A stretch of DNA of 63,273 nucleotides, the filler included. It is 10 parts of 10 records of this genome, joined end to end, with 100 filler letters (N's around TTAATTAATTAA, not from the genome) between each part and the next. Parts side by side here need not be neighbours in the genome. Positions count along the whole stretch, not along the records: positions 1 to 12,035 come from SRR7504441_3450; positions 12,136 to 15,274 come from SRR7504441_3455; positions 15,375 to 22,317 come from SRR7504441_3456; positions 22,418 to 27,174 come from SRR7504441_3458; positions 27,275 to 33,448 come from SRR7504441_3459; positions 33,549 to 37,272 come from SRR7504441_3460; 4 more parts are not named here. One strand, given 5' to 3'. This document shows positions 1,387 through 33,787 of the stretch, in pieces; position 1 is the first letter of the stretch; every line of letters starts with the position of its first letter. The position numbers were made by a program, and so were the translations under genes. Below the pieces are notes generated by a model. It was not told the DNA's origin, searched no databases, and was given only the letters and a program-made list of their open reading frames with translations.

Positions 1387-1431
1387 GGTAACATTTAGGT
1401 GACATTATGATCCGTATTGATACCGTATTGA
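1387..1431. repeat. Two X9-TA-X9 scars
   Basis: ggtaacatt-TA-ggtgacatt (1387-1406, 1 mismatch); ccgtattga-TA-ccgtattga (1412-1431). Confidence 0.85.
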
Positions 1432-1553
1432 GTTTTCTCCTTTTTTGCAAACGCGGGAGTTGGTCCAAATGCAGGCTTCTCCCAGCCGGGTCCATACCGT
1501 CCATCGCGCAGGGCTGGCTATTAACACTATTAACAAGTACTCTGTGAGCTCCG

Positions 1554-2510
1554 TCACATCAAAATTGCTCGATCAAACTTCCGGTCACTCGGCACTCCCC
1601 CGTCTGTGTGAAAGACGCTCCACCATATGAAAGCCTGCACAGTCGACTCGTGGCACATCGGATTCTGCAAGAACCGCTCCGCGCTCTCACGGTCAACTAG
1701 CAAGCTGCAACACTTGTGCGAATCGATGATCAGAAATTTCTGGTCATCCATCGGGCACACCAGCGCTGTCTCAGAGTCGCGGTGCACGATTAGCACACAG
1801 TTGGGCTCATGCAGCCGGTCCAATGCCGCTACCAGCTCCGTATACGGGCTCCGCTCCAGCTCCTCCATCCGAGCAAAGCACGGCGCGGCCCTCGTGTCGC
1901 AATACCGCGCATCTGTGCTGCTCTGGGCGTCGGCCGCGTAGCTATGCGGCTCGCCGTCCAGCGCCGTGTTGACGCTCAGCCGCCAGTCCTCCAGCCCGTC
2001 CAAGATCTCCGGCAGGGCCTGCCCAATCCAGCTTGACAGTATCTTCTGACTCCATGGTCGCTCCGGTGCGTTCTCTTCCTGGTCTTTCTTGGCGGCCAGC
2101 CTTCGGGCAGTGGCCTCATCCAACAGCTCATGATACTCGGCCCGGTACGCCTCGGCCGCCTCTTCGCTGAGTACCGCCGGTCCGAACAGCTCAGCGAGCC
2201 GTTGCCACCTCCCCAACCCGAGCATCCCGAACCAAGTGCACTGATTCTGGCACTCGTGCCGGCGGTCCGCGTCCGGCCAGCCTGGGCGTGCCTGGGTGGG
2301 TGGCTGCTCCAGCGAAGCCCTTGCCGGGGAAGAGAGGTATTGGTGCTGGGCAACCAGCCCGTCGACTGTCACGGGGCGGGACGGCGGCGGGGGCGGAGGC
2401 TGGAGGGCGGGGCGCTGGTCTGCGGGGAGCTGGTCGTAGTGCCGCTGGCAGCTGGAGCACAGCCCGAGCGGGCTGCCGCCGTGGAACTGATGACACAGCT
2501 GACAGGACAT
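1554..2510 (-). CDS. A20-like zinc finger plus putative papain-fold (tegument-like, C76-type) deubiquitinase
   Basis: N-terminal CQLCHQFHGGSPLGLCSSC, Pro linker, then QNQCTWFG ... FLIIDSH. First plausible ATG at 2510. Confidence 0.5.
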   Translation of the reverse strand: MSCQLCHQFHGGSPLGLCSSCQRHYDQLPADQRPALQPPPPPPSRPVTVDGLVAQHQYLSSPARASLEQPPTQARPGWPDADRRHECQNQCTWFGMLGLGRWQRLAELFGPAVLSEEAAEAYRAEYHELLDEATARRLAAKKDQEENAPERPWSQKILSSWIGQALPEILDGLEDWRLSVNTALDGEPHSYAADAQSSTDARYCDTRAAPCFARMEELERSPYTELVAALDRLHEPNCVLIVHRDSETALVCPMDDQKFLIIDSHKCCSLLVDRESAERFLQNPMCHESTVQAFIWWSVFHTDGGVPSDRKFDRAILM

Positions 2511-2783
2511 GCGCGAACAGCCGTGGCAACGATGCCTTAAATTCAGCGCAAGGGGAGGGGGGGGAGGGGAGGAGGCGGAGACAAGGGCGGGAAGAACCAT
2601 GGGCAAAACCTGACCTGAACAATAAACCTCGAGGTCGCGGTCAAAATCTCCGCTACTCGTTTGCAATTAGGTCCACCACGCAAATAATTACTATAATCAA
2701 TCAGTTACCTATCAATCTTTTGTGCGCGTGCAATCCTAATGAGGCTCTCACTAAATGCGCTATCATGTGTGCCATGATCGGCT

Positions 2784-3806
2784 CTAGATAGCCAAAGACA
2801 GTTGTCGCTGCGGGGCGTTCCGATGCACTTGCCAATGCCTGTCCTGTGGTGGCTCTCCATGTTGTTCTAAGTACGCCTTCGCCACTACCAGCGCCGCCTC
2901 CTCGGCCGTTGCTTTGCAACCATATTTGATACGCTTCCCATCGATCCACAGACTCGCTTGGTACTTGCCATTGGCCTGCATCAGACTCACTCCGAAGTAG
3001 CCAGAATTGCTCTGAGACGACTCAAAGTCACGCAAATCAGCCACAGACAACTCGGCAATCCGCTTCCTCTGGCCCGGCCGCTTGGCCTGGGCCGGCCGCT
3101 TGGTCGGCGCTGGCCGATTGCTCGTGCCCTGATCAAGTGCCATAGCGCCGCTGACAGCCTGCCGCCGTTGGGCGCACGCCTGGGCCGCCTCCAGAGCAGT
3201 CTCATACTGCCCTATGTAGACTCGCTCCCCGTCGATAGATATCTGGGCCTGATACCGGCCGGCCAGCGTCCTGGTCACCCCTCGGTAGCCCGAATTGCTC
3301 CTCTCGGACGCAAACCTGGACACGTCGATCGCCCCGGAGCGCTCCGGCCTAGGTTTGGGGGTCAACGGCTCGCTGCCGGCTGCCGGCCGATTGGGGGTGG
3401 ATCTGCTATCGGGCGGCTGGCCCGGCGCCGGGACCGCCCCGGACTTGACCTCAAAGCCATCCACCAGATCTACCTCCACCTCGCCGGCCCGCTTGGACAG
3501 CACCACCGGGCTGGTCGGCAGCTGGAAGATCAGGGCATCCAGGTAGAGCGCATGACCCATCAGCAAGCCCATCTCAATCATGTGCTGCGGCCGCAACGCC
3601 TGCAGCGTCTCGGCCTGCACAAAGCCGTGCCGCTGGAGCTTGGCGAAGGCCCCGGCGCCCTCGAGCGGGCCTGAGCCACACAGCGCCTCTAGCTCGTGCG
3701 TGAACCGACCGGCGGCGCTCCGGGCGAGCCGCGGGCACAGCTGGCGACAGACGGTGTACGCCTCCGGCTGGCTGGAGACAGGCAGGAGCCGGGCTCCGCT
3801 GAGCAT
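2784..3806 (-). CDS. Double AP2-domain DNA-binding protein with SAM-like N-terminal domain
   Basis: SGYRGVT..GRYQAQI..YIGQYETALEAA and SGYFGVS..GKYQASL..TAEEAA; LQALRPQHMIEMGLLMGH is SAM-like. Confidence 0.75.
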   Translation of the reverse strand: MLSGARLLPVSSQPEAYTVCRQLCPRLARSAAGRFTHELEALCGSGPLEGAGAFAKLQRHGFVQAETLQALRPQHMIEMGLLMGHALYLDALIFQLPTSPVVLSKRAGEVEVDLVDGFEVKSGAVPAPGQPPDSRSTPNRPAAGSEPLTPKPRPERSGAIDVSRFASERSNSGYRGVTRTLAGRYQAQISIDGERVYIGQYETALEAAQACAQRRQAVSGAMALDQGTSNRPAPTKRPAQAKRPGQRKRIAELSVADLRDFESSQSNSGYFGVSLMQANGKYQASLWIDGKRIKYGCKATAEEAALVVAKAYLEQHGEPPQDRHWQVHRNAPQRQLSLAI

Positions 3807-3884
3807 GCTGTTGGTCTGGCTCCGCCGGGGGCCGAGTGGATGACAGTTAAGATCGAGTAACGGAACTTACAGTTGGCGCTCCCG

Positions 3885-5084
3885 ATGGGGAACTGCATCT
3901 TGGGCTCGTGCGTCTCGCCCGATGGGATCAAGAACTGCTGCTGCGCCGGTCGGCCGGGCGAGTGCTGCAAGTGCTGCTACTGCTGCCTGGAGGAGGAGCA
4001 TCGCGTAGCCCGCGTGCTGCAACACATGCCGCCAGTCCAGCTCATCGCGGCCCAGGAGCGGGCCGGCGAGCTGATGAAGCTGGTTGGCCGGGTGACCCTC
4101 CCCCCGTTCGAGGCCTCGCAAGCCTGGGCCCAAGTGATGTACAGCCCGGGCTCCAACCGGCCGTGCGTATACTGGCGAGTGGTTGTCGAGGAGCAGCACA
4201 TTCACTTCCAGGAGGTAATCGAGCGGGATAAGGACGGGCGCGAGACCGGACGCCACTGGACCGAGAGCCACTCCTGGCGGACTGTCTGCGATCACGAGAA
4301 TTATGTCGACTTTTACCTGCAGGACGGCCCGATCAAGCTGTTTGTCAACGGCCGGTGCCGCGACCAGTGCAAGATCCAGAGCATCTGGGACGCCGGCGGT
4401 GGCGGTTACACCAACTTCTTCCACAGCGACTTGGAGCCCTCAATCCGTTGGCTGATGCACTGCCACGGCCGCAACTTTGGCGGGTGGCACCGAAACTGGA
4501 GCCGGAGTGGATGCCGCGTGGACGGCCCGACAGGACATTTCCGGTGGAGCGAGTGCATCTTTGAAGTGAACGAGAAGATCGCGGCGCTGGGGGTGGCGTC
4601 GACTGGCACCCAGGATCCGTACACTCAGACAGTAACGCTCTCTCTGATCCCTTTCTATGAAGGGATCATCAGCGAGGACGCGATGGATGAGAAGGGCTGG
4701 TCCACCTGGGACCAATGGAGCTGGTCCGACCTGCTCCACCACAACCCGGCGGTCATGCTCTCCGACTCCAAAGAGTTCACTGGCTGCATCGACGTTAACC
4801 CGGCCTCTGATCTGCCCCGGTGGCAGCAGCAGTATGTCCCCTCCTACGCGCCGTGGGGCAGCCAGCCAGAGGCTCAGTGGCAAGCGGTTCCACCGCCGCC
4901 CCCGCCGCCACCCCCGCCGATGAACGTGCCGGGAATGGGGCCCCCGGGAGCAATGCAGCCGCCACCGCCGGCCTACAACCCCGCCGCCACCACGACCACC
5001 ACCACGACCACGACGACGACCACCACCACCACCACACAAGCCACCACACAAGGAGCCCAGCCCAACCACGTTTATCAAGCCTAG
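3885..5084 (+). CDS. Lipid-anchored protein with GIDE-like domain and Pro/Thr-rich tail
   Basis: MGNC start and Cys cluster; SPGSNRPCVYWRVVVEE...WRTV...DFYLQDG resembles GIDE; poly-Thr encoded by (ACC/ACG)n at about 4988-5038. Confidence 0.55.
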   Translation: MGNCILGSCVSPDGIKNCCCAGRPGECCKCCYCCLEEEHRVARVLQHMPPVQLIAAQERAGELMKLVGRVTLPPFEASQAWAQVMYSPGSNRPCVYWRVVVEEQHIHFQEVIERDKDGRETGRHWTESHSWRTVCDHENYVDFYLQDGPIKLFVNGRCRDQCKIQSIWDAGGGGYTNFFHSDLEPSIRWLMHCHGRNFGGWHRNWSRSGCRVDGPTGHFRWSECIFEVNEKIAALGVASTGTQDPYTQTVTLSLIPFYEGIISEDAMDEKGWSTWDQWSWSDLLHHNPAVMLSDSKEFTGCIDVNPASDLPRWQQQYVPSYAPWGSQPEAQWQAVPPPPPPPPPPMNVPGMGPPGAMQPPPPAYNPAATTTTTTTTTTTTTTTTQATTQGAQPNHVYQA

Positions 5085-5942
5085 AGCGCTCCACGCATCC
5101 AGTGCTCGAGTGCTGGGCCATGTTGGTACGAGTCATGCAGAGTCCGATACGAGTATGCCTGAGCACATCTTCTCACCGCGTTGATCAGAGCTCTCAAATA
5201 AAATCCGAGTATACGCACGATTATATGTAGAATATATGAAAGTAGTTGCCAATGGATGGTACTTGCTACGTACGAGAACCACCCGCCAACAAGGGCGGTG
5301 GGGCTTGCGCTACTGCGTACACTGGCGGTGACCCAGCTTCTCGTTGGCACTATGCTATGATTGCTCCGTGGGGCTTACTATACACACGGGTGTCTGCCCG
5401 TTGCTCTGGGTACGGACGCTACAGCACCCCGGGCACGTTCACCGGGAATCCAAGCACAAGCACGCTCGCAGCCGCCAGCGCCAGTGAAGCTGCCACCCCT
5501 CCCGCGACCGCCATCCCGGGCCCGCTCAAACTGTCGGCTTGCTTTGCCTCCCTGCGGCCGTCTTGGCGGGGCAGCGCCGTCGGGGGACCTGCGTGGGGAT
5601 ATCCGCTCGAGCAGACGGTCTTCCATGGCCTGGGTTGATTCGCGGTCGAGCCCGCCCTTGCGCGGAGGCTGGATCACCATACTGGGTTTGAGAGGCTGAC
5701 GGAGCTGCGCACACACACAGGAGGTCAGCGCGCGGTCGGGGGCAGGCCCGGCAGGTGGGGGCGGCAGGCCACCAGCTATACGAAGCCTCGACGGTTATTC
5801 GCGTTGCCGGTATTTAACCGTTGCCACGGAGCTCGTGTGGCTACGATTATTGTAAGAAGCCTGTGGCTACGATTACTGTAAGAAGGTTATGTGGATTTTA
5901 AGGCTCCGACTTTCTAATAAATGTACCTATACACTATCTATA

Positions 5943-6984
5943 TCAGCTCGGTTGGCTGTCACTGGCGTGTCCCTCCCCTCCTCTCGTCCGGTCGCCTTGC
6001 TCCTCCTCCTCCCCAGCTCCGGCCAGCCTCAGCCAGCCCCCGATCGTCTGCACCACTGATGACCAGTCATTCCCGGCCGGCTCCCGATCCTCTCGATCGG
6101 CACCTGGCAGCTCTCCCCCATCACGGCTCTCCTCCGAACGCCACCGGTCATTCAGCAGCGTCACTGCGAGCACCGCCAGAGCAAACGGTAGCAGCTGCAT
6201 CCCAAGCGTGCCCAGCTCGCGCAGCCGCGATCGGGCATACTCCCGCCGCTCCTCGCCCTCGTGCTCCGCGTCCAACAGCAGCGGGTACCCGACCCCGTCG
6301 ATTTCGATCAGCGCGTCTGGCCCGGGTCGCGGCTTGAGTCCCAGCCAGCTCATGTACCGCCGGATAGTCTGCCGCCTCCGGAGCGCCGTCCGAAGCGCTG
6401 CCAGGTTGAGCGGCTGGCTGCCGTCGATTAGCCGGCACTCGACGCAGCTGGCTTCGCCGGGCCAGATCCAGCGGACCCATTCCGCCAGCTGGGAGAAGCG
6501 AGTATCCACCGGCAGCCGAATCTCCGGCAGCCCGGCCCACACCCAGCGGCGAGGGGCCTCGAACCGAGCGCCCCAGTCAGCCTGCCGCTCCCGTTAACAT
6601 TCAGGGTTGGGGTGAGCCTGCCTGCTGGTCGGACGCCAGGTAGTCTAGCAGCACCGTCTGGCTGTCCTCTCCCAAACGGACCACCCGGCAGGCCCCTTCG
6701 GGCAGCCCTCCGCCCCGGACCAGCACCACTGCCCCCGGGATCAGCCTGTGCTCGTACAGCCCCTGCAGCTGGCCGGCCTCCTCCGCCGCTCGGGTGACCG
6801 GGTGCCAGCGCAGCTTGAGCTCGAGGTCGTCGGCCCGCCAGCCCTGCGCGTTCTCGGCCATCGCCCCCAGCACGTGCCGCGGGTTCTCGAAGTCGTACGT
6901 GGGCACCAGCGACACCAGAAACGACGGCGGCCGCCCCACGGCGCAGAAGGCACGCCGCAACACCACCCCACAGCGCTGCCTCAT
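5943..6984 (-). CDS. Hypothetical membrane protein, possible mitochondrial presequence
   Basis: Two ORFs joined by a 40-nt GC-AG intron (6582-6621); Arg-rich N-terminus; one C-terminal hydrophobic helix. Confidence 0.55.
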
Positions 6985-7042
6985 ACCTGATGGGCTGACT
7001 GGCGCGAGTTGCCGTTATTCTTCGCGCCGCTGCGAGCCCAGC

Positions 7043-7478
7043 ATGCCGCGTAAGGGGGTGCGCCCAGCGCTCCTGGCGGCGGACGGTGGGCTGAGCCCGC
7101 GGCTGGAGGCGGCGCTGTCCGAGTTGTTCAAGCGGTTCGATCGGGACGGCGACGGGCTGCTGAGCAAGCTTGAGCTGGGCGAGTACAGCACGGCGGTGGC
7201 CCGGCGCCAGGAGCTGGCCAGAGCGGGGGGTTAGGCCAACCCTGAAGGGCGGGCGTTCGACGAGGGCGAGCTGGCGCAGATCGAGGAGTTTTTCGAGTGG
7301 AGAGAGGGCGGGCTCACGCTGGATGGCTGGCTGAACATGTACCACACCCAGACCAGCGCGGACGAGGCGCGGCTGCCGGCCGGTCTGGGGCTGAGCCGGT
7401 GGGCAGGACGAGACTTGGCGGGACCTGCAGCAGCTCGGGTACAATGACAGCCTCGAGCTCGGGGACAGCACCAAGTAG
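7043..7478 (+). CDS. Small EF-hand protein with Miro-type EF-associated motif
   Basis: DRDGDGLLSKLE loop. Introns 7196-7234 (GT-AG) and 7367-7406 (GC-AG) give GLTLDGW..ETWRDLQQLGYNDSL. Confidence 0.75.
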
Positions 7479-7622
7479 CGCCGATTCTGTACTAGTACTA
7501 AGCCCCACAATGTCATGCTCGTACATTTAGTGGTGATCATCATCAGAGGGATTCATTTAATATTGGGGCAGTCGGTGCGCCTTAGGAGCGTCTTGAGCGG
7601 GACTACATGGCCGCGTAACGGA

Positions 7623-8576
7623 TCACAGAGCATTTGCTATGATATAATCTAGCCCGCCCACAATCACCGCAACCTGAGCCCGATCGCAATCCTCTGCTGA
7701 CACCGGTCGCTCCTTGGAATCCGGATAAACCTCGGTCGTGGTCGCAAACAGCGCATTGGTGGCCCCTTTGCCTTTGCCCACAGGGTCCGAATTGATTACC
7801 CCCGGCTGGGCCAGTGGCAGCCCCATAATCATGCCGTGCTCGTCCGCGGGAGCAATGTGCGTCACTTGCCTGACCGCATCGATCATGGCCCGGTGCCACT
7901 CCGGCTGTGGCTTGCTCAGGCAGCCCATCAAGTAAAACCCGTCAGGGATGACCTCGTCAGCGAGCGGCAGCCCGTCCCGCGAGGCCTTGGCCGGCCTAAA
8001 CTCGGTGAAATCAGTGTCGGTGGTCTCGTGCAGGTCTAGATGCACTGTCCACTGCTCCACGCCCAGGCTCGCCACCAGCCCCAGCAGGGCGGCGCACTCC
8101 TCAGCCGCGCTCTCGGGCACGTAACACCGGTTGGGGTCGAGCGCCTGCGGGTTCCACCGCTGGATGCATTCGTACCCCCAGGGACATACGCAGGGCACCA
8201 CTGCCACGTTGAATACACCAGAGTACCGCTCCGCCTCTGTTTGGAGAAACCTGATCGCCCCGCGGACTCCGCTAGTCTCGTACCCGTGCGTCCCGCCGGT
8301 TATTAGCAGCGACGGCTTGGTAGGCTCCCAGCCGCGCGACTTGACGCAGACCAACGGATACCGGGCCGGGTCTATGGCAAGCTCGCCGTACCGGTGGAGC
8401 TCGAACCTGCCGGCCAGCGCCTCGACCGGCCGCAGCACGTCGTCCTTGTACGAGCGCTTGGGCTGACCAGCCAGCTCGAGCCACTCGGCCCGCTCGGCCT
8501 CGCCCCAGGCCACGCCCGGCTGGCCCACCGGGTAAAAGTGCTTGGCCTCTTCCTCGGCCTTCGCCTCCTCCACCAT
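7623..8576 (-). CDS. M14-family zinc peptidase (succinylglutamate desuccinylase/aspartoacylase-like), intronless
   Basis: GGTHGYE, DPNR, DLHE and TTTEVYPD motifs. Confidence 0.85.
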   Translation of the reverse strand: MVEEAKAEEEAKHFYPVGQPGVAWGEAERAEWLELAGQPKRSYKDDVLRPVEALAGRFELHRYGELAIDPARYPLVCVKSRGWEPTKPSLLITGGTHGYETSGVRGAIRFLQTEAERYSGVFNVAVVPCVCPWGYECIQRWNPQALDPNRCYVPESAAEECAALLGLVASLGVEQWTVHLDLHETTDTDFTEFRPAKASRDGLPLADEVIPDGFYLMGCLSKPQPEWHRAMIDAVRQVTHIAPADEHGMIMGLPLAQPGVINSDPVGKGKGATNALFATTTEVYPDSKERPVSAEDCDRAQVAVIVGGLDYIIANAL

Positions 8577-8617
8577 GATCTCCAACGGAAACCGAATCCG
8601 TTAGATGCAATCCGTAG

Positions 8618-9994
8618 ATGCAAGCCACGAAGGACGAGAGCCAGCCGCCGGCCGCTAAGCGGGCCAAGCCGCCGTCGACCGCCGAGGCGGTGCTGGGCTG
8701 GATCCGCGCCGCGGGTGGCACCGTCGGGCCGCTCGACCCGCGGCCCAGTCCCACCTGCGCAGGTGAAGGGCTGTTCGCCCGGGCTGCGCTCGCTCCAGGG
8801 GGGCTGCTCGGGTCGGTGCCCCGCCAGTGCGTGCTCACCGCCGAGACCGCGCTGGCCAGTCCGTTAGGCCAGGCGTGCGCCGCCGGCCCCCAGCCGGTAC
8901 GCCCGGAGATGGTGCTGCTGCTGTGGATCGCCGCCGGGCGCGGTGGGGCTGGCCGGGAAGGTGGCCGCTGAGGGCATCGGCAGCGGACGCGGGGCACCCT
9001 TTCCATCTGTACCTGTCGAGCCTGCCACCAGGGGGCTGCGGTAGCCCGTGGTGGCCGGAGTCTGCCCGGACTATGCTGGCTGGCACACCGCTGGGCCATT
9101 CTACCGAGAAAGTGCGGGCAGACCACATCGCCGAGTGCGACCAGGCAGCGGCCGGGGGGCGGCCTGGCACAGCCAGGGGTGCAGGTGCTCGCGCTGCTAT
9201 CAGAGCGCGCCCCGGAGCTGTCAGCTGGGCTGGACAGTGAGACGGTCTGGTGGGCTCACGATGTGTATCACTCGAGACGGTTCCCTCGGAAGCTGTGCGG
9301 CTGGCTGTGTGCGGAGGCGGCTGGGCTAGCCGAGACGGGGGTGATGCTCCCGCTGTTCGACATGCTCAACCACCGGCCGATGGGCAAGATCGAGTGGCGA
9401 CCGGGGCAAGAATCGATCAGCTTTGTTATCGAAGAGCCGGTGGAGGCTGGCTGCGAGGTGGGGCTGCTCAATGTGCCGATTGATCCAGCTGCAGGTCTTT
9501 AACAATTACGGCCCAAAGCCCAACGACCAGCTGCTGCTCCAGCACGGATTCGCGCTCGAGGATTCTCGGTTTGATACTTTCCCGCTGCAGATGGCCGTGG
9601 GGAGTCGAGAGGGAGAGACCACGGTCAAGCTGGGTCCTTTCATCATTCGGCGGGCGGACGAGGCCTGGCCTCAGTTCCCTGATGAGCTTTGGCGTGCGCT
9701 TGCCGACCCGCTGGGTCATGGCAATATGAGTGAGCCGGAGGGCGACCAAGCGGTCGAGGTGCGCCAGCAGGTGGGCTTACCAGCAAGGCGGAGCAGGTGG
9801 CTCCGGAGGACGTCGAGCTGTTGCGCGACACCCTAAACGGCAAACTGAGTGCTTTCATCGCCCCTGAGGAGGTGCGATCGGAGCAAGAGAGGTTTGTGGC
9901 CATATATATCAACGGTCAGAGGGCGCTTTTAGAAGAGGCGATCGAGACGTTGGATGAGATGCTGGAAGCCTTCGGCGGCGGCTGCAATGAATAG
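8618..9994 (+). CDS. SET-domain protein lysine methyltransferase (Rubisco LSMT/SETD3-like), 5 exons
   Basis: GEGLFA, PLFDMLNH, EVFNNYGPKPNDQLLLQHGF after removing four 37-41 nt introns (one GC-AG at 9145-9184). Confidence 0.85.
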
Positions 9995-10043: not shown

Positions 10044-10128
10044 AACGTTCTATAAACGTTCTATTCGGTTCATTATAAACTTAGGTTCATCTAACAATGA
10101 TTGATTACACGCATAGGTAACGCATAGG
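10044..10128. repeat. Two X9-TA-X9 scars
   Basis: aacgttcta-TA-aacgttcta (10044-10063); acgcatagg-TA-acgcatagg (10109-10128). Confidence 0.9.
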
Positions 10129-10233
10129 CGGTGACACAATCTTAGATTAGCCATAATTTGCATCGGTAATTATAAGAAACTGAACCCCGTGAGGAGGTGT
10201 GCGATGCTTTAGCGGTCCCTGGTCAATACTTGG

Positions 10234-11901
10234 TCAAGACCAAAATCGCAGCACTTCGTCAACACCCGCAGTTACGATTCGGCCATCAGGAAGCACCCCG
10301 ATGCACTGGGTTGAAGCAACAAGATAGTTTTCATATTCATCTTTGCTCAGTGTACCCTTCAAGCTTGAAGGAGGCAAGGCACGAATGGTGTGCATGTAAC
10401 CAGTGGAATAATCCTCGCATGCATCAAACACGCGCATGTAATCGCTGGTGCACCCGTCATTGGCTGTGCACCAGTCCAGATTTTTTTCGATGCCACAAAG
10501 CACTTGGCCATTTGGCAACGCAACCAACGCCGAGATCCGGGCTGTGCCGAGTTCCATTGAATAAGCGTGGTATGCCCTCCGTTCCTCATTTGTGAGGTCA
10601 GTCACCAGCAACAAGACAGCGGACGCATCAGCAGAATTGTCTATGGCTAGAGCGACAGAGCAGGTACTACCATCACCAGAGCCTGAGACCAAGACTAATT
10701 GACTTATCTGAGACCAAGACTGTATGCATTCTAAGCTCGACGTGTCAACAACTAAGATGCATTCTAAGCTCGAAAGCTGCCACAACCTGAGCGTGCCGTC
10801 CGCGCTTGCACTCACAACCATTTGGTCAGCTGTCTCTGCGGCGCACGTCACAGCGCTGGTATGCCCGACAAGTTCTTGCATTTGGAGACCCCCACTAGAG
10901 CCGTCGCTCTGGCACCCTGCAAAAATCCTGACTGTGCAGTCACGGCAGCAGCACAGGAAGTTGCCGTGCTGACTCGGAGTAGACAAGCGCAAGATGTACC
11001 GTACAGCCATCTCAGCTGCGGGCAACTCGGCCAATGCAGTGTTGTGAGTCCCCATGCGATCTTGAAGGCAATACAGCAGATTGTGTGCATGTTCTGAATC
11101 TTGAGGCGATTCGACATCCCACACCAACAGTTCGGTGGAGTCAGCACTGACGACCATGCCAGCACCAATCGCCGCGACACATGTCACTGGATCATAGTGT
11201 CCAAATTGACCCTGGTGGGTGTCTCCATGCTCGTCGACCTCCCCAAAGTCACCGAGAACACGCAAACATTCGCCTGTCACGCAATCCCAAACACGAAGTG
11301 ACGTGTCGATGCTGCCAGTGACGATGCGCCCATTCGGAAGCACGTCCAGGCACGTAACAGGACCACGGTGATCGGCATCCTGACCATACCCAGCATCCAG
11401 TTCACACGAGCAGGCCTGGGGGTAGTGCATATGGCTGAGCACCCGTCTCCAGCTCCGGTCAGGGTGCATCCGCATCCGCTGCATCCTGCTACAGCGAGAT
11501 TGGGCTTCACCTTCCACAGTAGCGAGGAACGCACTGCAGGCGGCAGCTGCGTGGCACATCTGAATGCCCGGCTGTAGGTGCGAGAGGCACAGCCGCAGGA
11601 TATCGTGATGGGCCGTGAGTTGCCCCAAGCTCGTCCTACACCGAGATCGTGTGTTAGGCATTGTTACTTGAGCGGCCTCCGCAGACACACTGCACTCCGC
11701 AGGCACACACTCGCCGGCAGCAGCAGCGGGGCTTGGCGCGTGCGATGGCGAGTGCGATGTGCGATCGGCGTCTTTTGTAGCGTCCCCGGTCAGGGAGGCT
11801 TCCAAGGAGTCCACCCGGGCCGCTTTGGCTGGGCTATGTGGCTCAACCAGGGTGGCTGGTTCAGAGGGGCTGCGGCTCACTGAGTCGGGCCGGGATCCCA
11901 A
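10234..11901 (-). CDS. WD40-repeat protein with degenerate F-box-like segment; start uncertain
   Basis: HRGPVTCL..IVTGSIDTSLRVWD and GHTSAVTC..VVSASADGTLRLW. The ORF opens at TTG 11901; first in-frame ATG is about 11664. Confidence 0.75.
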   Translation of the reverse strand: MGSRPDSVSRSPSEPATLVEPHSPAKAARVDSLEASLTGDATKDADRTSHSPSHAPSPAAAAGECVPAECSVSAEAAQVTMPNTRSRCRTSLGQLTAHHDILRLCLSHLQPGIQMCHAAAACSAFLATVEGEAQSRCSRMQRMRMHPDRSWRRVLSHMHYPQACSCELDAGYGQDADHRGPVTCLDVLPNGRIVTGSIDTSLRVWDCVTGECLRVLGDFGEVDEHGDTHQGQFGHYDPVTCVAAIGAGMVVSADSTELLVWDVESPQDSEHAHNLLYCLQDRMGTHNTALAELPAAEMAVRYILRLSTPSQHGNFLCCCRDCTVRIFAGCQSDGSSGGLQMQELVGHTSAVTCAAETADQMVVSASADGTLRLWQLSSLECILVVDTSSLECIQSWSQISQLVLVSGSGDGSTCSVALAIDNSADASAVLLLVTDLTNEERRAYHAYSMELGTARISALVALPNGQVLCGIEKNLDWCTANDGCTSDYMRVFDACEDYSTGYMHTIRALPPSSLKGTLSKDEYENYLVASTQCIGVLPDGRIVTAGVDEVLRFWS

Positions 11902-12182: not shown

Positions 12183-12202
12183 AAACATGTATAAAACATG
12201 TA
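12183..12202. repeat. X9-TA-X9 scar
   Basis: aaacatgta-TA-aaacatgta, downstream of the ORC5 stop. Confidence 0.85.
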
Positions 12203-12273: not shown

Positions 12274-14212
12274 CTACCCGAGGTCGACTTGTTGCATCCA
12301 ATCCTTGAGCGGCTTGAGCGGGTGGTTCGGGTCCTCGACATCCTGGCCGCCCCGGCTCAATCTCAGGCTACCAGTGCGCCTAGGTGCCTGCAGCCCTGTC
12401 ACGCGCTCTATCAGCTGCCGGTCCGCCATGCATCGGAACTTCATCCCAAGTGGCTTACTCCCCACCCGCGCAAACAGCCCGAGCGTCGATAGCGAGCCTG
12501 GCCACACGCTGTGAGCGCTGGAGAGTGGACGGCGCACCGAGCGCGGGGCCCATTTGTCGGAGCGAGCTGGGGATCTCGACAGGGCTCTGGTCCATGAGTC
12601 GGTGGCAGATGGCCAGCAGCCTCTGGGCCTGGCCTGCCGGTCAGCTGTGGCCGCACTCGGCTCACATGGAATGGGTGGCTGCTCCCCGCGCTGCCCTGCT
12701 CGTCTGTGGCTTTGGGCTTGGTCCGTCGCTTGCCTGACCACACCGGCTCAACTGGCCAGCAGGGCGGGTCGCACGTTTCCGGCTCTTGCTGTCCAAGGCA
12801 GTGAACACGTTGAGGTCGTCCTTGGGGTTCACCCGGGCCGCAAGGTATCCAGACACGAGCAAGTACCGGTGGTGGACGGGAAGCGGCTCCATCTGGTCGA
12901 CCGGGCCACTCCTAAGGAAAAGCTGGTTGAAGATCTTCTTGAGCGTCGGTTCGAAAAGCGTGTACAGCTTGTCGGTCAGGTCGGCGCCCTCGAGCCCACC
13001 CTCGGTCACCTGCAGCGAATGGCCCCGGCCTGGCCCAGCACGGCACCGGCCGGACATACTCGCCAAACCAGCTGCCTGTCACCGGGGGCTCGGCCCAGCG
13101 TTGACTAAGCCAGCTCGCCTGCGAGGTACTGCAGCTCGCCGAGATCTCGGCAGGCACTGGCACAGGTCAGCCCAGCCGTGCGGGGGGCACCTGTAGCAGA
13201 TGTCTATGAGCAAATTGACGAAGCCTGTGGACGGTCGGTCTGCCCGGCCTGCAAGGGGCACCAGGCCAGAGCTGGGCAGTCTGAGGCTGGACAGCGAGCT
13301 TTGGCCTGAGACGCTTCAGGATCAGCTTGAGCTGCTCGTCCGAATAGCTGCTGAAGTGCAGTTGAAGCGGTGGGGCCATCTGGAGGTCGAGCTGCGCACA
13401 GGAGCTCAGCCAGACCCGTGCCAGAGGCCGCGCCTGCACGACCGGCGGCAGTTGGAACCACCCGACAGTGCTCACCAGCACGATCAGCACCCGGCACCTG
13501 ACTCGGGCTGAGCAGCCGCCCGCCTGGGGGATGCCCTGCGTTCCACAGCCTCGGGAGCACCTGCGGTTGGTCAGACAGACCCGATGACTCGTCACCCGGA
13601 ACACGCCGCCTTGCTCTATCGCGTGCAGCCGCTCGGCCTGCTCGACCACCTGCCCGGACTCATCGCTACCCACCTAGCTCGCCCACCAAGTACACTAGCC
13701 GCTCGGCGGTCAGCCGCCTGCCCCCCGCCCTCCGCCCCGCCGGCCAGCCTTTTTTCACCTCAGCTCGGTGCAAAACCCGGCCGGTCCGTCGCACCCGGCC
13801 GGCTCGGACGGGGGCCCGTGCAGCTGATCCAGAATGTTGTTATACAACCTGGTCCGGCTGGCCCAGGCACAGGCCCGGGGCCACCCGCGCGCCGGATGAT
13901 CGCTCCACTCCACCGCGCTCACCGTAGCCACCCGGTGTCCCCGCCCGACCTGCACCGCCGGATCGGCCGCGGCACGGTCCAGCTGCGGCTGCCGTGTCCA
14001 GCGCGTGTCGCACCGCCATTGTCTTGCCGCACCCGCCCGGGCCGTACACATACACCAGCTGCCGCCCCGCTCGCCCCGCAGCTGGCAGGAAGCACCGAGC
14101 CACGGGCTGAATCTGGGTGCATCAGTCGCCCCAGCTGCGCCAACTCGGCCTCCCGGCACAACACCGGCGATGCCAGCCCGACGGCGTCGCCGGCCTCGTC
14201 AGCCTCTGGCAT
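12274..14212 (-). CDS. ORC5: Origin recognition complex subunit 5, multi-exon
   Basis: CREAELAQL, VYVYGPGGCGKT (Walker A), LYNNILDQL, LHFSSYSDEQLKLIL, LPVHHRYLLVSGYLAA..NP..D, KFRC across frames linked by ~40-nt introns. Confidence 0.85.
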
Positions 14213-16210: not shown

Positions 16211-16287
16211 AAGTACTAGTAAAGTACTGGAAGAGTGCCGAGTAATTTTGAAATGGTAATGAATTGATCGATCACATATCGATCACA
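16211..16287. repeat. Two X9-TA-X9 scars
   Basis: aagtactag-TA-aagtactgg (16211-16230, 1 mismatch); tcgatcaca-TA-tcgatcaca (16268-16287). Confidence 0.85.
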
Positions 16288-16370
16288 ATTGCCATAGGTT
16301 AGGTGAGCCTTAGGCCCTAACTTTCTAATAAATGCACTTGTATATACATAATTGATTGATCACGATTATG

Positions 16371-19300: not shown

Positions 19301-21360
19301 CAGCGCGTGGAACTGCTCTGGTGATACCAGCAAAGAGCCATCCGGCAGCTGCATCTGCCCATCGAGCAGCAGCCGCCCGAGCGCCGAGTAGAGCAATCCA
19401 GGATGCAGCCGATCCACCCCTTCCAACAGGATCACGTCTCCTGCCACTGCAGCGGCAACCACGGCAGAATCCCGCCAGCTGGTGTCCCCATTGAGCTCAG
19501 TGGCCCGCGCCATGGTCAAATCAGCGCTGGACATATCCTTGAAGCACAGCACCGATACAACCCTACCGTACCCCAATGCCCTGGCCGCCTGGTGGGCCAC
19601 AGTGCTCTTGCCGCTACCAGGGGCTCCCACCACACAGGCCACTCCGCCTGCCTGGGCCGCCCACTGCCTGACCACGCCCGCCACCGCGCTCGCCTGCCCC
19701 CAGCTGGCAGTGACAAGCTGGCAGGGTCTACCTGTGAGACAGTCAGCCGCCAAGCTCGTCCCCACTTGGCTCCGTCAAACGGCCAACAGGCGAGCGCCTC
19801 AGTCTGCTGGCTCGCGCTTGCCACTCTCTGTCCCCGACTCAGCACGGGGGCCTAACGGCAGCTGCCTGCACGAGCTCAGCCTTCTCCCGGCAGTCGCCAA
19901 ACTCGACCTGGTGCTCCCGTAGCCAGCCCTTGAGAGCAGACACCGACATCCCCGCTGCATCTAGCCCGGCAGCCCCGCTAGCACATGCCAGCTCGCCCGG
20001 CCCACACACGCACTCGAGTGGCACTGGTCGCACGCTCGGTCCGAATTCTATTTCACATCTGTTGGGCGCAAGCCTGCTTATCTTACTAGGCCAGCCCTCT
20101 GCATCTTGCCCGAGCCCATGCAGCCCGTACTGGGCCATCAAGCTCGCCAGACCCGCGTGGGCAGGCAGCAGCTGGTGTGCAGTCGCTGAACCGAACTCGA
20201 GAGTGAGCGGCAAGCCCGGGAGCGCGGCCAGCACTGTAGCCAGGCAGCGCAGCCGCTCCTGATTCAGCACGATTGGCGCGCCTTGCAAGCCGTTGTTAGC
20301 ATTGTACTCCTCAACCGCACCCGCCACCGCGCTGAGCGTGTGCGCAGCCCCAATAGATAGGTCCGGCTGGTTGATCGCTTCAGCCCAATCGGTGGGAACA
20401 TGACAGCACGCGAACCGGGAGCGGAGCGGTGGGTCGAGAGCGTTGCTCCCGGCGCTGCGGGCAGTCAGTGGCCGATAGGCTGGAGGAGCAGTCACCTTGG
20501 GTGTGCAGTGGTGGGCTGGCCGATCGCGACCACGGTGAAGCCAGGGTGCACCCTTCGCCAGCCGGGCGGAAGCGTGGATGGATCGCAGCTAGGGTTGGCC
20601 AGGAAGCTACCTGTCTCCGGGGTCAGCAGCAGCTCGCCTGACGTGGCTGCCGTCTTCCAGGGCCATCTCACGGTTCTCAAGCAGGTTGTTGATCACAGGC
20701 AGCACGTTCCTCTCAGCCTTGTCTATTCCATCCAGCAGCAGCACCTGACCTGGGTAAGAGCACGCAGCGCAGCCAACCCACCCTCCCCGCCACAGCCGCC
20801 CTCACCACCGGGCTGTCGGTCCAGCTCACCTGGCCTGCCCTGATCTGGCGCCGCTGCTTGAGGTCGGCCTCGTTGGTGTCCCGTGTGACTGGCACGTGCT
20901 CCAGCTCCATCCCGAGCAGCTGGCAACAGAGCATGGCGCACCGCCGGCAGTCCGGCCCGGGCGCCCCAGCCAGGAACACGTCCTGGCCCAGCAGCAGCTT
21001 CTGGAACATCCAGCGCACTACCTGGAGGTCCCGCTGGCTCCCGCCCGGACGGGCCAGCCACGGCAGCCAGCCGGGCCGCCCGCCGGCCCGGGCCCGGACA
21101 GCCAGCCCCCCGAGCCGCACCACGCGCTCCCCGGCGCCATCGTCCCCCGGCAGCAGCAGCGGCTCCTCCCCTGCCGGCTGGCTCGACTCTCCGGCTGGCT
21201 CGTCCTCGGCATCCCGGCTTATCAGTGACTGGGCCGGGCGGGTCTGCCCGTCGGACTCGAAGTACTCAACCAGCTCGTCCCGGCTCCAGGCAGCCGAGTC
21301 AGACGGCAGCTCCACCCACGGGTAGTCCGTCTCGAACTCCTCCAGCCGCTGGTCCGCCAT
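16371..21360 (-). CDS. VWA8: VWA8-like triple AAA+ ATPase with C-terminal vWA domain
   Basis: GQDVFL.G.PG..RR, GAPGSGKS, GNQGVGKNKL, VDEADKAP, GGNKWAGGSGGTGTAGLGGRAGPYRLD, DVSGSMY MIDAS. The last intron gives a TFKQIF..NE* ending. Confidence 0.9.
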
Positions 21361-21542
21361 CTCCGACCAGTTGCCGATAAGTCTCAAGTGATAACTCTGC
21401 ATGTAGATCTAGACGATGTGCAGCTGGACAGCAGCAGCAGCAGCTGTACTGCTAGAGTCTACTAATTAACTACGAGTAGGAACTATACCGGTACCTACAT
21501 ATATATAGGCTGTACCGGGGCCGGTCTCGGCTCGTCCGTGCG

Positions 21543-21562
21543 AGAGCGACTTAAGAGCGACT
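21543..21562. repeat. X9-TA-X9 scar
   Basis: agagcgact-TA-agagcgact. Confidence 0.9.
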
Positions 21563-22638: not shown

Positions 22639-22658
22639 CTATTTAGATACTATTTAGA
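22639..22658. repeat. X9-TA-X9 scar
   Basis: ctatttaga-TA-ctatttaga between the convergent ankyrin and NRPS genes. Confidence 0.9.
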
Positions 22659-30140: not shown

Positions 30141-30221
30141 TCTTAGCTAAAGCTATGTGTCAAAGATGTGGAATGCAGGTTGTTAGGGCATCGATAACGG
30201 CAATCTGGCCAGGTGAACGCG

Positions 30222-30800
30222 ATGGGAGGGAGTTGTGCCTCGCGGGAGGCGACCGAGCTGGCAGGCAGCGTCAGCGCTGCGGGGAACGGGGGGCAGTGGT
30301 GCTGTGCACGGAATCCGCGCCACCAGCGGGACCAGAACATGGAGAGGATGGTTCGCGTGGTCCTGCTGGCTCCCGAGGGCGAGCCTGCGAGTAACCGGGC
30401 CCGACTGGCATGCCGGAACAGCTACTCGAGCTTGATGTCGGTCTCGCCGGATCACCGGCACCTAGACCGCGAGTACACTGGCCGCTGGCACAAGGTTGGG
30501 TCGACGTACTGGTTGATACTCGCTCATAAGGTGGACTACGCTGCGTGCTCCGGCAAACCGGGGGAGCTCACAGCACTCGCCCAGGCTTGTCTGGTCAAAC
30601 TAGAGACCCGGGACCACAAGCTGCGGATAGACCTAGCGCCCAGTCTTCCAGAGGGGGAGCCGGCGTTTGCTGTGGATCCTGGGCCGTTTGACAACGAGGT
30701 TCTGCGCACAGACTTAGGAGAAGCTGCGAGAGAATACGATGCGAACGACAAGCCCATCCCCTTTGCGCTTCCAATGGACTTAGAGAGAGAAGCCGTGTAG
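30222..30800 (+). CDS. Hypothetical N-myristoylated protein
   Basis: MGGSCAS start; ORF ends at an AT-rich region; TAACGG just upstream. Confidence 0.5.
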   Translation: MGGSCASREATELAGSVSAAGNGGQWCCARNPRHQRDQNMERMVRVVLLAPEGEPASNRARLACRNSYSSLMSVSPDHRHLDREYTGRWHKVGSTYWLILAHKVDYAACSGKPGELTALAQACLVKLETRDHKLRIDLAPSLPEGEPAFAVDPGPFDNEVLRTDLGEAAREYDANDKPIPFALPMDLEREAV

Positions 30801-30840
30801 CGCTTTCAACGGTGCAGTCATTCCTATTAAAATTATTTAC

Positions 30841-32047: not shown

Positions 32048-32153
32048 GTTCCGTAATTTCCGTTACTCTGCAGCTGCAGCGACCCGTGGTCGCTCGTTGG
32101 CAAGTGTGCACGCACCGCACAGCGCCCCGCAGCCCTCTCGCGGCAACAGGGAG

Positions 32154-32487
32154 ATGGACGGGGGTAGCACTACCACAGCCAACACAGCTAGCACGCCCGG
32201 CAAGGGGTGCGGACCCAAGCTGGGCAAATCGGGCAAGAAGATCTGCTGCTCCTGCCCCGAGGTGCGGCCCGGCGCGGAGGACGCTCACCTGGTCTCGCAG
32301 ACCCGCAAGGCACGCGACGAGTGCCTGGTTCGGAACGGGGAGGACGGGTGTCAGGCTGGCAGGTCCCGCGGGCCCGGCTGAGCCGGACGGCAGGCTTTCA
32401 TAGAGGCGCACAAGGCTTGCCTGCGGCTGGAGGGCTTCGACGTGCCGACCGCTGGCTCGGCTCGGCCGACCTCGGGGGCAGGTGTAG
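32154..32487 (+). CDS. COX17: Cytochrome c oxidase copper chaperone
   Basis: KICCSCPE|TRKARDEC..CQ|AFIEAHKACLRLEGFD|V* after three 39-40 nt introns (one GC-AG). Confidence 0.93.
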
Positions 32488-32632
32488 TGGGCCGTCGGGC
32501 GGCAGCCCGCGTGGCTCGCCGCTGTGCACACCGATAGCACGCACTAGGACGAGCGGTGTGCGACTAATACATGTGATTGTCACCCGATATACTCAACTAT
32601 GCGTACTTACACTAGCTGTACTAGTACTGCAT

Positions 32633-33448
32633 TCAGCCGGGGTCGCGCCTATCTACAGTCGCCGCTGGCTTGGCGCTACTGATCGACTGCTTAAACATCG
32701 CCCTAATCGATCCTTGGCGCGGCTTGCGCTTGGCTGCTCGTTCACTTCCCGATGGGCCTGACCTTTTGGCTCGGGCACACCCCTCCAAGACCTGCATCCG
32801 GCTTAGGCTGTGTGTATACTCGCGCGCACCTCCTGCTGCAGCTCCGGCGGGAGCGCTGCCAGGAACTCCGGGTCCACGGCTGGGCGAGTCGAGCTGCTCC
32901 GCTGGCCTGCCGGCTCTCCTGTCTGGAAGAAACTATCTATCGCCCTCGTTTCGCTCGGTGGTGGCTCGGCGACCGGGCGGCTGGGCAGCCAGGCCGCGTT
33001 CAGGCAGAGGTCGATGTGCGCGTTCAGCTCGAGGTTTGACAGCTTGAGGGCCTGGCCGCATATGGGGCACCGAGTCTCCTCCAGGGAGCCGTTCAGCTCC
33101 TCGGCTGCAGACTGGTCGGGCTGGCTCATCGCTTGAGAGAGGTCATACGCGAGCATCTCCTCCGTGCAGCCTTGCTCCTCCAGCCCGACCTCCACCTCCT
33201 CCTCCGGCTGCGCGGCCGGCTTAAAGAATCGGTCTATCGTGCCCGACTGCTGCACCCAGCGAAACACTGACAGCCTGATCCCCATGAGCCTCAGCTCGAC
33301 TTTCTCATGCGCCAGCTCCAGCCCGAGCAGCTTCCGTGCTGCGGCTCCGATCGACTCGGCGTCCGAGATAAACCTCGGGAGCGTGGCGCACCGAGTGAGC
33401 ACCCGGAAGCTGCGGCAGAACAGTCAGGACAGCCTCGGCCGGGCTGCA
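32633..33448 (-). CDS. POLK: Y-family DNA polymerase kappa-like, 3' part
   Basis: Little finger LRLMGIRLS; UBZ CPIC..LNAHIDLCL; UBM VDPEFLAALPPELQQEV; PIP-like QGSIRAMF. Confidence 0.8.
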
Positions 33449-33643
33449 NNNNNNNNNNNNNNNNNNNNNNNNNNNNNNNNNNNNNNNNNNNNTTAATTAA
33501 TTAANNNNNNNNNNNNNNNNNNNNNNNNNNNNNNNNNNNNNNNNNNNNGCCCGCCATAGCTCTCGGTCCTCCGCAGCCTCCACAAAGCTCTTCCACTGAC
33601 GAAAGTACTCATAAATACTTGTAATTATGACTACCTGTAATCG

Positions 33644-33787
33644 AGTACAATCTAAGTACAATCATGATATTGCATTAACATTGCATGATCGTACTGTGTA
33701 CGGGCCGCTCAGTTCCTACAAGTCTACATGATTGTATGTTTAAAATCAGCTGGTCTAGCCATAGGTTTCGCTACAATACCGCTACAA
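33644..33787. repeat. Three X9-TA-X9 scars
   Basis: agtacaatc-TA-agtacaatc (33644-33663); atattgcat-TA-acattgcat (33667-33686); tcgctacaa-TA-ccgctacaa (33768-33787). Confidence 0.85.

Follow-up and report, generated by a model that had tools for sequence, protein, structure and literature searches.

A recurrent X9-TA-X9 scar in the non-coding DNA of a compact protist genome, with the form of a transposon excision footprint

Across the window analyzed here, a 63,273-nucleotide stretch of ten contigs joined by N44-TTAATTAATTAA-N44 spacers and numbered along its whole length, an arbitrary 9-mer repeatedly occurs twice around a central TA, which raises the question of what process leaves so uniform a mark. 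The window uses the standard genetic code and has a GC content of about 60%, with the 26 kb of contigs 7-10 lying below contigs 1-6 in this respect. Close relatives are absent for its proteins, and the named matches include dinoflagellate and Perkinsus sequences; the host is an uncultured marine protist, possibly an alveolate. Its genome is compact; non-coding DNA makes up roughly 10% of contigs 1-6, and the non-coding DNA surveyed for scars amounts to roughly 3.8 kb.

The X9-TA-X9 observation is real. A search of the whole window with the expression ([ACGT]{9})TA\1 returned exactly nine perfect cases (1412, 10044, 10109, 12183, 15105, 16268, 21543, 22639 and 33644) on five contigs (three on contig 1, two each on contigs 2 and 3, and one each on contigs 4 and 6), the same nine that an earlier note on this DNA had listed. 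The four one-mismatch cases of that note (1387, 16211, 33667 and 33768) were also recovered, together with two that it lacked (5219 and 10218). One further candidate, with two mismatches, lies in an intergenic gap at 7574. The individual sites are as follows.

1387..1406: one-mismatch scar, GGTAACATT-TA-GGTGACATT, A/G transition; 5 bp from the scar at 1412; intergenic, downstream of the stop of minus-strand ORF 1557-2666
1412..1431: perfect scar, CCGTATTGA-TA-CCGTATTGA
5219..5238: one-mismatch scar, GATTATATG-TA-GAATATATG, transversion; about 135 bp past the stop of plus-strand ORF 3861-5081
7574..7593: possible older scar with two mismatches, weak, GGTGCGCCT-TA-GGAGCGTCT; between ORFs 6431-7552 and 7626-8600
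10044..10063: perfect scar, AACGTTCTA-TA-AACGTTCTA; within a convergent 3' intergenic region, 51 bp past the TAG at 9991-9993
10109..10128: perfect scar, ACGCATAGG-TA-ACGCATAGG
10218..10237: one-mismatch scar, CCTGGTCAA-TA-CTTGGTCAA, C/T; the second copy includes the TGA stop of a WD40 gene (10234-10236, minus strand)
12183..12202: perfect scar, AAACATGTA-TA-AAACATGTA; 47 bp from the start of contig 2
15105..15124: perfect scar, TAGCTGGAA-TA-TAGCTGGAA; 150 bp from the end of contig 2
16211..16230: one-mismatch scar, AAGTACTAG-TA-AAGTACTGG, A/G; downstream of the stop of an AAA_5 gene (ORF 16385-19774, minus strand)
16268..16287: perfect scar, TCGATCACA-TA-TCGATCACA
21543..21562: perfect scar, AGAGCGACT-TA-AGAGCGACT; about 135 bp outside the 5' ORF end (21408) of the same AAA_5 gene
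22639..22658: perfect scar, CTATTTAGA-TA-CTATTTAGA; about 117 bp past the stop of an ORF that enters from the start of contig 4
33644..33663: perfect scar, AGTACAATC-TA-AGTACAATC; 3 bp from the scar at 33667
33667..33686: one-mismatch scar, ATATTGCAT-TA-ACATTGCAT, T/C
33768..33787: one-mismatch scar, TCGCTACAA-TA-CCGCTACAA, T/C; 86 bp past the stop of an fn3 gene (33874-35313, minus strand)

With respect to format, a repeat length of 9 and a TA spacer were observed at all 15 sites (nine perfect and six with one mismatch). When repeats were tabulated by period and run length, period 11 gave nine runs of 9-10 bases, compared with 0-2 for each of the remaining periods between 8 and 20, multiples of 3 left aside, and the spacer was TA for every period-11 repeat of at least 9 bases. 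A matrix of repeat length (k) by spacer likewise contained five matches at k=9 with a 2-bp spacer, TA in each, and four at k=10 with a 1-bp spacer, which are members of the X9-TA-X9 class lengthened by one chance base; k=8 with a 2-bp spacer gave none, and k=10 with a 2-bp spacer gave a single match (spacer CT). TA is the least common dinucleotide (1763 occurrences), yet it accounts for nine perfect matches as spacer, and the only others (AA 2, AT 2) are the same sites shifted by one base. A spike at k=9/TA, which the earlier note had predicted for the genome as a whole, is present within the window, with none at k=8, at k=10 or with other spacers. Its description of the 9-mers as arbitrary holds as well, since they and their flanks share no consensus and only AT-richness (62% A+T), as does its statement that the spacer is always TA and the outer flanks are not, a flanking TA being found on neither side of any of the nine perfect scars. 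Simple tandem duplication by replication slippage was rejected on this last point, as an 11-bp unit predicts X9-TA-X9-TA or TA-X9-TA-X9.

The scars are also far in excess of chance. Specifically, 200 block-wise, dinucleotide-preserving shuffles contained a mean of 0.09 perfect matches and a maximum of 2, versus the 9 observed. In a control set of 80 eukaryotic metagenome loci (related loci, ≤56% identical, with flanks that are not orthologous), 2 perfect X9-TA-X9 repeats were found in 634,606 bp, and TA was not in excess over other spacers; contigs 1-6 hold nine in 36,772 bp, and the control density per kb is about 78-fold lower. No scars were detected in the 26 kb of contigs 7-10, which reflects either a mixed bin or a process that is not genome-wide. 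About 15-16 scars fall in the roughly 3.8 kb of non-coding DNA, or about one per 250 bp.

In terms of location, none of the 15 scars overlaps a coding-like ORF, and 12-13 of them lie 50-230 bp past a stop codon, in agreement with the earlier claim that they are confined to non-coding DNA and mostly just follow stops. The scar at 21543 is the only case clearly on the 5' side of a gene, and that at 10218 is the one most likely to have arisen by chance. Many 3' regions carry no scar. An addition of 11 bp shifts the reading frame, and only scars in non-coding DNA, mainly 3' intergenic or 3' UTR stretches, would survive; the absence from coding DNA is the pattern expected if selection purges such insertions from exons. 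The clustering that had been reported is likewise evident in two close pairs (1387/1412, 5 bp apart, and 33644/33667, 3 bp apart) and two further clusters (10044/10109/10218 and 16211/16268), which suggests hot spots or local re-insertion. Duplications of other kinds were also noted, namely 9-bp duplications at 1518 and 12304, one of 13 bp at about 8597, one of 26 bp at 5836, and the arrangements X14-11-X14 and X17-16-X17 at 10683/10724.

The mismatches bear on the age of the scars. Five of the six single mismatches are transitions (probability about 0.02 if mismatches were random), a bias indicating that the two copies were identical at origin and mutated afterwards. The earlier note took the one-mismatch copies to imply long-running activity, a view that the data do not support: the classes with 0, 1, 2 and 3 mismatches stand at 9 : 6 : about 1 : about 0, and lag-11 autocorrelation in non-coding DNA is at background once the scars are masked. 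This spectrum suggests one narrow, young age class (Poisson mean about 0.5) and not steady accumulation.

Taken together, a 9-bp staggered-cut signature and a constant 2-bp remnant point most readily to the excision of an element with a 9-bp target-site duplication (TSD), and on balance we consider the scars to be probable footprints left as a single cut-and-paste DNA transposon family, or its non-autonomous derivatives, was excised. A fixed stagger length is a hallmark of strand transfer by a transposase or integrase, and the lack of consensus among the AT-rich 9-mers is expected for weakly specific target choice. From these features we infer an element, its TA termini and the geometry of its cleavage. 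Integration would begin when AT-rich non-coding DNA is cut with a 9-bp stagger, and gap repair would duplicate the 9 bp. On excision, the transposase would cleave both non-transferred strands at a point 2 nt within the element, or act through an equivalent hairpin, leaving a 3' TA on each donor flank; the element ends would accordingly read 5'-TA...TA-3', and the TA that separates the copies at 15 of 15 sites would come from the element tips. In a variant of this scheme, one nucleotide (T and A) would be retained per element end, followed by fill-in. Because self-complementary TA overhangs could anneal and be ligated without processing, each event would yield the same product, X9-TA-X9, with a net gain of 11 bp. 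To our knowledge, no eukaryotic superfamily that combines a 9-bp TSD with TA...TA termini has been described.

The element itself was sought in several ways. No 9-bp direct-repeat pair in the 63-kb window encloses terminal inverted repeats (TIRs) with TA ends, either among direct repeats separated by up to 1.5 kb and differing at one base at most, or among perfect ones separated by up to 12 kb, and no repeat common to contig ends was found. A Pfam scan of 39 ORFs returned no transposase or integrase domain and nothing PiggyBac-like. A metagenome scan for a scar-neighboring gene gave no match, in two public runs containing this organism the contigs (150-290 bp, depth 2-4) bridge none of the scars, and neither empty nor filled alleles were recovered. 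These negative results weigh against the footprint reading, as do the scar-free contigs 7-10. Of the earlier proposal that a 9-bp-TSD element is reproducibly removed, the 9-bp/TA anatomy is confirmed and excision is the best reading, while the envisaged TIR element and its transposase were not found in the window.

Several known systems resemble the scars in part. Tc1 and Tc3 leave a remnant of 2 nt. Footprints of other Tc1/mariner elements (Sleeping Beauty, Mos1) resemble the scars in consisting of a TSD, a few element-tip nucleotides and a second TSD, and they are described as owing their reproducibility to defined 3' overhangs on the donor flanks that are joined by NHEJ; in Sleeping Beauty/mariner, the non-transferred strand is nicked 3 nt inside the element and the footprint left by NHEJ is identical to those overhangs, a precedent for a constant footprint (PMC7827188). 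In contrast to the fixed TA target and 3-nt remnant of Tc1/mariner, the scars have an arbitrary 9-mer as TSD and TA as remnant, and the proposed palindromic 2-nt overhang would lead to one outcome instead of two variants. Mutator-like elements (MULEs), whose prokaryotic relatives are IS256, have TSDs of 8-10 bp, mostly 9 bp. Like the scars, they show a 9-bp target duplication without consensus and favor gene-proximal non-coding DNA (PMC5225508). For the active 9-bp-TSD MULEs Muta1 and Os3378, however, the yeast work reports precise excision in about 90% of events when TSDs are present, with one TSD copy lost and no bases added (PMC5225508), whereas the scars keep both copies plus TA; moreover, neither a MULE DDE transposase (0 of 39 ORFs) nor a pair of long TIRs was found in the window. 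The introner elements of Amoebophrya (Syndiniales), a marine alveolate of similar GC content that was invaded by short elements, are described as MITE-like, carrying inverted repeats and bounded by direct repeats (PMC7789003). These direct repeats are 3-5 nt long and the introners are introns within genes that are removed at the RNA level, unlike the scars, and 9-bp/TA scars do not figure in what that account says of introners (PMC7789003).

A parallel in form is offered by the IESs (internal eliminated sequences) of Paramecium, a ciliate, which are flanked by two TA dinucleotides and precisely excised by PiggyMac, a domesticated transposase, leaving one TA with extreme reproducibility (PMC3077386). 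In Paramecium, however, the duplicated target is the TA itself and the junction is seamless, which is tolerated in coding DNA, and IESs lie inside genes; here the 9-bp duplication stays, 11 bp are added and no site falls in a coding-like ORF. The comparison drawn in the earlier note thus extends to likeness of form only. The same parallel (PMC3077386), along with a fully uniform junction and dense scars (about 15-16 within the roughly 3.8 kb that is non-coding) beside no element copies in 63 kb, could be taken to indicate programmed elimination by the host, in which the sequence represents a somatic or processed genome and a domesticated nuclease removes all 9-bp-TSD copies at TA...TA ends; elimination of every copy would mean that scars are seen and elements never are. 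We consider this improbable, as neither nuclear dimorphism nor a germline copy is in evidence, repeats normally interrupt metagenome assemblies, which would be expected to lack the elements anyway, exclusion from coding DNA is unlike the seamless excision of ciliates, the standard genetic code and GC content of about 60% differ from those of known ciliates, and the ORFs scanned lack a PiggyBac-like domain. The broader proposal of a reproducible system that removes every 9-bp-TSD copy at TA...TA boundaries, be it an undescribed superfamily whose TA overhangs are self-complementary or a domesticated genome-wide excisase as in ciliates, is also quite doubtful.

The failure to find an element, and the presence of other short tandem duplications in the same non-coding regions, which makes duplication common here, would also suit a mutational process independent of transposons, whereby a 9-nt staggered break by a host nuclease, or repair or replication slippage, duplicates 9 bp and adds TA. 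Those other duplications, however, are plain head-to-tail copies of varied length, none in the fixed 9+2 format, and no repair pathway is known to us that would place a constant, non-templated TA between two copies of fixed length; given that a fixed stagger points to a transposase or integrase, such an origin is unlikely. Far less probable is an artefact of library or assembly. Tn5 tagmentation likewise duplicates 9 bp, unitigs can be mis-joined, and a fragmented assembly with low coverage (depth 2-4) in the public runs would suit this reading, but this caveat, raised in the earlier note, can be set aside: all 15 sites avoid coding DNA and are confined to the non-coding part of contigs 1-6, roughly 10% of the sequence, six scars have copies with point differences (5 transitions), a per-molecule error would not be fixed in a consensus contig, the 635-kb metagenome control has no comparable spike, and TA is not derivable from adapter logic. 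We give equally little credence to a selected motif, in which identical 9-mers one helical turn (11 bp) apart are kept as a 3'-region signal. While the concentration of sites 50-230 bp past stop codons, the surplus of perfect over decayed copies and the period near one DNA turn all fit, the 9-mers have no common sequence that a common factor could read, many 3' regions lack them, and mismatched copies exist.

If the scars are footprints of transposon excision, they would record a family with very high recent activity, with scar formation amounting to an estimated few percent of the substitution rate per site, and a one-product excision chemistry that is rare among eukaryotic elements and would make an attractive clean cut-and-paste tool. 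Should a system that removes every copy exist, an assembled genome with X9-TA-X9 scars only would extend programmed, or nearly programmed, DNA elimination beyond the lineages known to have it. The fixed k=9/TA format, detectable with a regular expression, provides a cheap marker with which to look for this system in further eukaryotes assembled from metagenomes and to recover the element. With scars representing about 8% of the sampled non-coding DNA, the underlying process would count as a major contributor to intergenic sequence in this compact protist genome.

A regular-expression search of the window for X9-TA-X9 scars, in which an arbitrary 9-mer is repeated around an inserted TA, returned exactly the nine perfect cases described in the earlier note, spread over five contigs. 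The four cases with one mismatch (start positions 1387, 16211, 33667 and 33768) were likewise recovered, and two further one-mismatch scars (5219 and 10218) and a two-mismatch candidate (7574) were added. None of the nine perfect scars carries TA at its outer flank, which rules out an 11-bp tandem repeat, as had been argued previously. In a matrix of repeat length k against spacer, the signal was confined to k = 9 with spacer TA. Specifically, k = 8 with a 2-nt spacer gave no match, k = 10 with a 2-nt spacer gave a single unrelated CT case, and the four matches at k = 10 with a 1-nt spacer are X9-TA-X9 sites lengthened by one chance base. In an unbiased tabulation of every direct repeat at short range, period 11 had nine runs of 9–10 bases, whereas adjacent periods, multiples of three aside, had 0–2. 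Although TA occurs less often in the window than any other dinucleotide (1763 times), no other spacer has independent perfect matches.

With respect to chance, 200 dinucleotide-preserving randomisations inside 200-bp blocks gave a mean of 0.09 perfect scars (maximum 2) against the nine observed, and as this block-swap shuffle may under-randomise, 0.09 is an overestimate if anything. As a control we used 80 eukaryotic metagenome loci (634,606 bp) found by AAA_5 protein alignment, all at ≤56% identity and none close. These held two perfect scars (L042:7493-7512 and L069:23-42), isolated in unrelated contigs and too few to tell from chance; with any spacer allowed there were 15 matches, corresponding to about eight independent events, and TA was not preferred. 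Per kilobase, perfect scars are ~78-fold more frequent in contigs 1–6 than in the control loci. Taken together, these comparisons confirm the X9-TA-X9 observation as far above chance. Two control contigs also have a one-mismatch X9-TA-X9 in common (L034:5543 and L036:5542), likewise too little to tell from chance. L042–L045 were aligned in search of an empty site orthologous to the lone L042 scar, but their flanks are not orthologous.

The 63,273 bases comprise ten contigs separated by the linker N44-TTAATTAATTAA-N44. Contigs 1–6 (window 1-37272, 36,772 bp of sequence) have a GC content of 59–69%, and contigs 7–10 one of 52–58%. The gene content is eukaryotic (a WD40 protein, a multi-AAA_5 ATPase, fn3 repeats, ORC5, an RNA ligase, xanthine dehydrogenase and an EF-hand ion channel), the closest database proteins are just 45–53% identical, and the few named protist matches include a dinoflagellate (Durusdinium), Perkinsus and Aureococcus. 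Parts of contig 1 are present in two public DNA runs labelled marine or aquatic metagenome (shares 0.07 and 0.05), with no RNA run among the matches listed. Given also a layout of GC-rich coding DNA with short AT-rich spacers between genes, the source is an uncultured marine protist with a compact genome. Neither Rfam nor tRNA searches gave a match in the window. Contigs 7–10 (window 37373-63273; GC 0.52–0.58, GC3 about 0.55–0.6 in most long ORFs) contain no X9-TA-X9 even with one mismatch allowed, and the bin may be a mixture of two organisms or of two genome compartments.

Two coding features were recorded alongside. The AAA_5 ATPase gene (16385-21408, minus strand) is broken across three reading frames, and on our reading, recovery of its conserved EDG.FL motif requires skipping a ~40-nt segment at ~20620-20660. 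This segment lacks GT-AG, is bordered by a 3-nt direct repeat (AGC), contains an inverted repeat (GTCAG/CTGAC), and resembles the non-canonical introns of Amoebophrya as described in the consulted sections of PMC7789003. A CCA/CAC-rich coding repeat at 4987-5036 showed very high summed depth in both metagenome runs, with numerous loose ends that derive from unrelated organisms; being of low complexity it acts as a magnet and has no bearing on the scars.

In terms of location, none of the 15 perfect and one-mismatch scars overlaps an ORF with coding-like GC3, and 12 or 13 sit 50–230 bp 3′ of a stop codon.

Positions of scars relative to genes
1387/1412, 5219, 10044/10109, 16211/16268, 22639, 33644/33667/33768, and probably 12183: scars 50-230 bp after a stop codon
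10218: scar overlapping the WD40 stop codon
21543: scar ~135 bp past the 5′ end of the AAA_5 gene

The scars are also clustered, with two pairs 5 bp and 3 bp apart and two more groups inside 40–110 bp, so that the non-coding, mostly post-stop and clustered distribution reported earlier holds. By a hand-drawn list, AT-rich spacers in contigs 1–6 total about 3.8 kb, giving a density of ~1 scar per 250 bp and a scar share of ~8% of spacer DNA. We attribute the restriction to non-coding DNA to selection against an 11-bp frameshift, and the 3′ bias may reflect either a target preference or stronger constraint on very short promoters. Neither a target-site logo nor a test for enriched 4-mers near the 15 sites gave a motif; the 9-mers, flanks included, share nothing beyond AT-richness, in agreement with the earlier description, and the final X9 base is A in 8 of 15 scars, a weak tendency.

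Two short sequences recur near scars. A 10-mer consisting of CCATAGGTT plus one flanking base is found at 16290-16299, 4 bp after scar 16268, and at 33758-33767, immediately before scar 33768; the recurrence may be due to chance or may reflect a local target cue. An exact 15-mer with AATAAA (ACTTTCTAATAAATG) occurs at 5909-5923 and 16320-16334, both 3′ intergenic, within a ~45-bp similar block that in each case closely follows a duplication or scar. The chance expectation for its 11-mer core is 0.04, and it may be a 3′-end signal or a small repeat.

A duplication of fixed length but arbitrary sequence marks staggered strand transfer by a transposase or integrase. On the strength of format and location, the best available reading is that the scars are excision footprints, an interpretation we consider somewhat better than even. 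In Tc1/mariner elements, according to the part of PMC7827188 consulted, the nick in the non-transferred strand falls a few nucleotides within the element, these nucleotides remain on the donor flanks as 3′ overhangs, and non-homologous end joining of the overhangs yields a canonical footprint, a constant short remnant between copies of the target-site duplication (TSD). By analogy, cleavage 2 nt in from both ends of an element with 5′-TA...TA-3′ tips would produce a pair of TA overhangs, and since these would be self-complementary and ligate directly, a single excision product would be expected. A 1-nt variant of the cut followed by fill-in would fit equally well. A hairpin or P-nucleotide (hAT-like) origin of the TA would need X9 to start with T and end with A; the first base is T in just 3 of 15 scars, and this origin was rejected because the terminal X9 bases do not co-vary with TA.

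The scar behaves like a Tc1/mariner canonical footprint but carries a Mutator-like 9-bp target duplication. The TSD-flanked MULEs assayed in yeast mostly excise precisely (PMC5225508, in the portion consulted), whereas the scar keeps both 9-mers and the TA. The suggested parallel with Paramecium stands in respect of the retained TA, common to the IES junction and the scar (PMC3077386), but goes no further: IES excision is seamless and tolerated in genes, while the scars add 11 bp and are exclusively non-coding. Introner elements of Amoebophrya are abundant and MITE-like in marine alveolates of similar GC, but their direct repeats are 3–5 nt rather than 9 bp (PMC7789003, same sections). No description of a 9-bp-duplication-plus-TA scar was found in the main text of open-access papers.

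The element and transposase that the earlier note had proposed to look for did not emerge in the window. No 9-bp repeat pair encloses an insert bearing terminal inverted repeats (TIRs) with T...A or TA...TA ends, the only matches being at chance level in GC-rich coding DNA; none of 39 scanned ORFs has a transposase domain; and the contig ends have no repeat in common. Absence of the element from 3–12-kb contigs is weak evidence, since repeats interrupt metagenome assemblies. The WD40 protein encoded beside three scars retrieved no relative from the metagenome collection searched, in which this organism is not represented. Public-run contigs matching contig 1 are 150–290 bp long at depth 2–4, and among those listed none bridges a scar to show an empty or filled allele. 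If a domesticated excisase carried out programmed elimination, scars would be expected with no elements beside them, but we consider it improbable that a protist other than a ciliate runs such programmed excision genome-wide.

It is also conceivable that an element-free repair process makes X9-TA-X9, as scar-bearing spacers contain other short tandem duplications. These, however, consist of simple head-to-tail units that vary in length and have no added dinucleotide, and they are separate from the TA class.

Plain tandem duplications in or near non-coding DNA
5836-5887: 26-bp unit, one mismatch
8597-8623: 13-bp unit
1518-1535: 9-bp unit, no spacer
12304-12321: 9-bp unit, no spacer

Other repeats were seen in different formats. 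At 10683-10773, two adjacent spaced repeats (X14-11 nt-X14 and X17-16 nt-X17) sit within an AT-rich island that interrupts the composition of the WD40 frame, elsewhere open; an intron or an insert that keeps the frame may account for it. Non-coding DNA at the 3′ end of contig 9 (57118-57158) holds two overlapping period-13 repeats (GGAGCAATG-ATAG-GGAGCAATG and a 12-mer repeated around T), a format that differs from the period-11 class. Short duplication polymorphism occurs in other protists too: L011:60-360 and L012:2250-2550, from one AT-rich (31% GC) species in two metagenomes, differ in an 8-bp tandem duplication and in a TA/AT indel of 2 bp, and both copies contain GATTACCAG-AT-GATTACCAG.

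A selected motif is contradicted by the lack of any sequence common to the sites, and a technical artefact by the avoidance of coding DNA, the clean control contigs and the transition bias of the mismatches. Transitions account for five of the six single mismatches, which indicates that the copies were once identical and have mutated since, and makes chance matches as well as artefact less likely. The mismatch classes (nine perfect, six with one mismatch, about one with two, background beyond) match a Poisson mean of about 0.5 by our own calculation and do not fit the flat distribution expected under steady production without loss. Lag-11 identity in the spacers falls from 0.289 to 0.267 once recognised scars are masked, within the background of 0.24–0.27, and a hidden layer of old scars is absent. 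These observations do not support the long-running activity proposed earlier. The alternatives are a recent burst of activity or a rapid loss of scars, for which deletion between the two 9-mers would offer a route that restores the original site.
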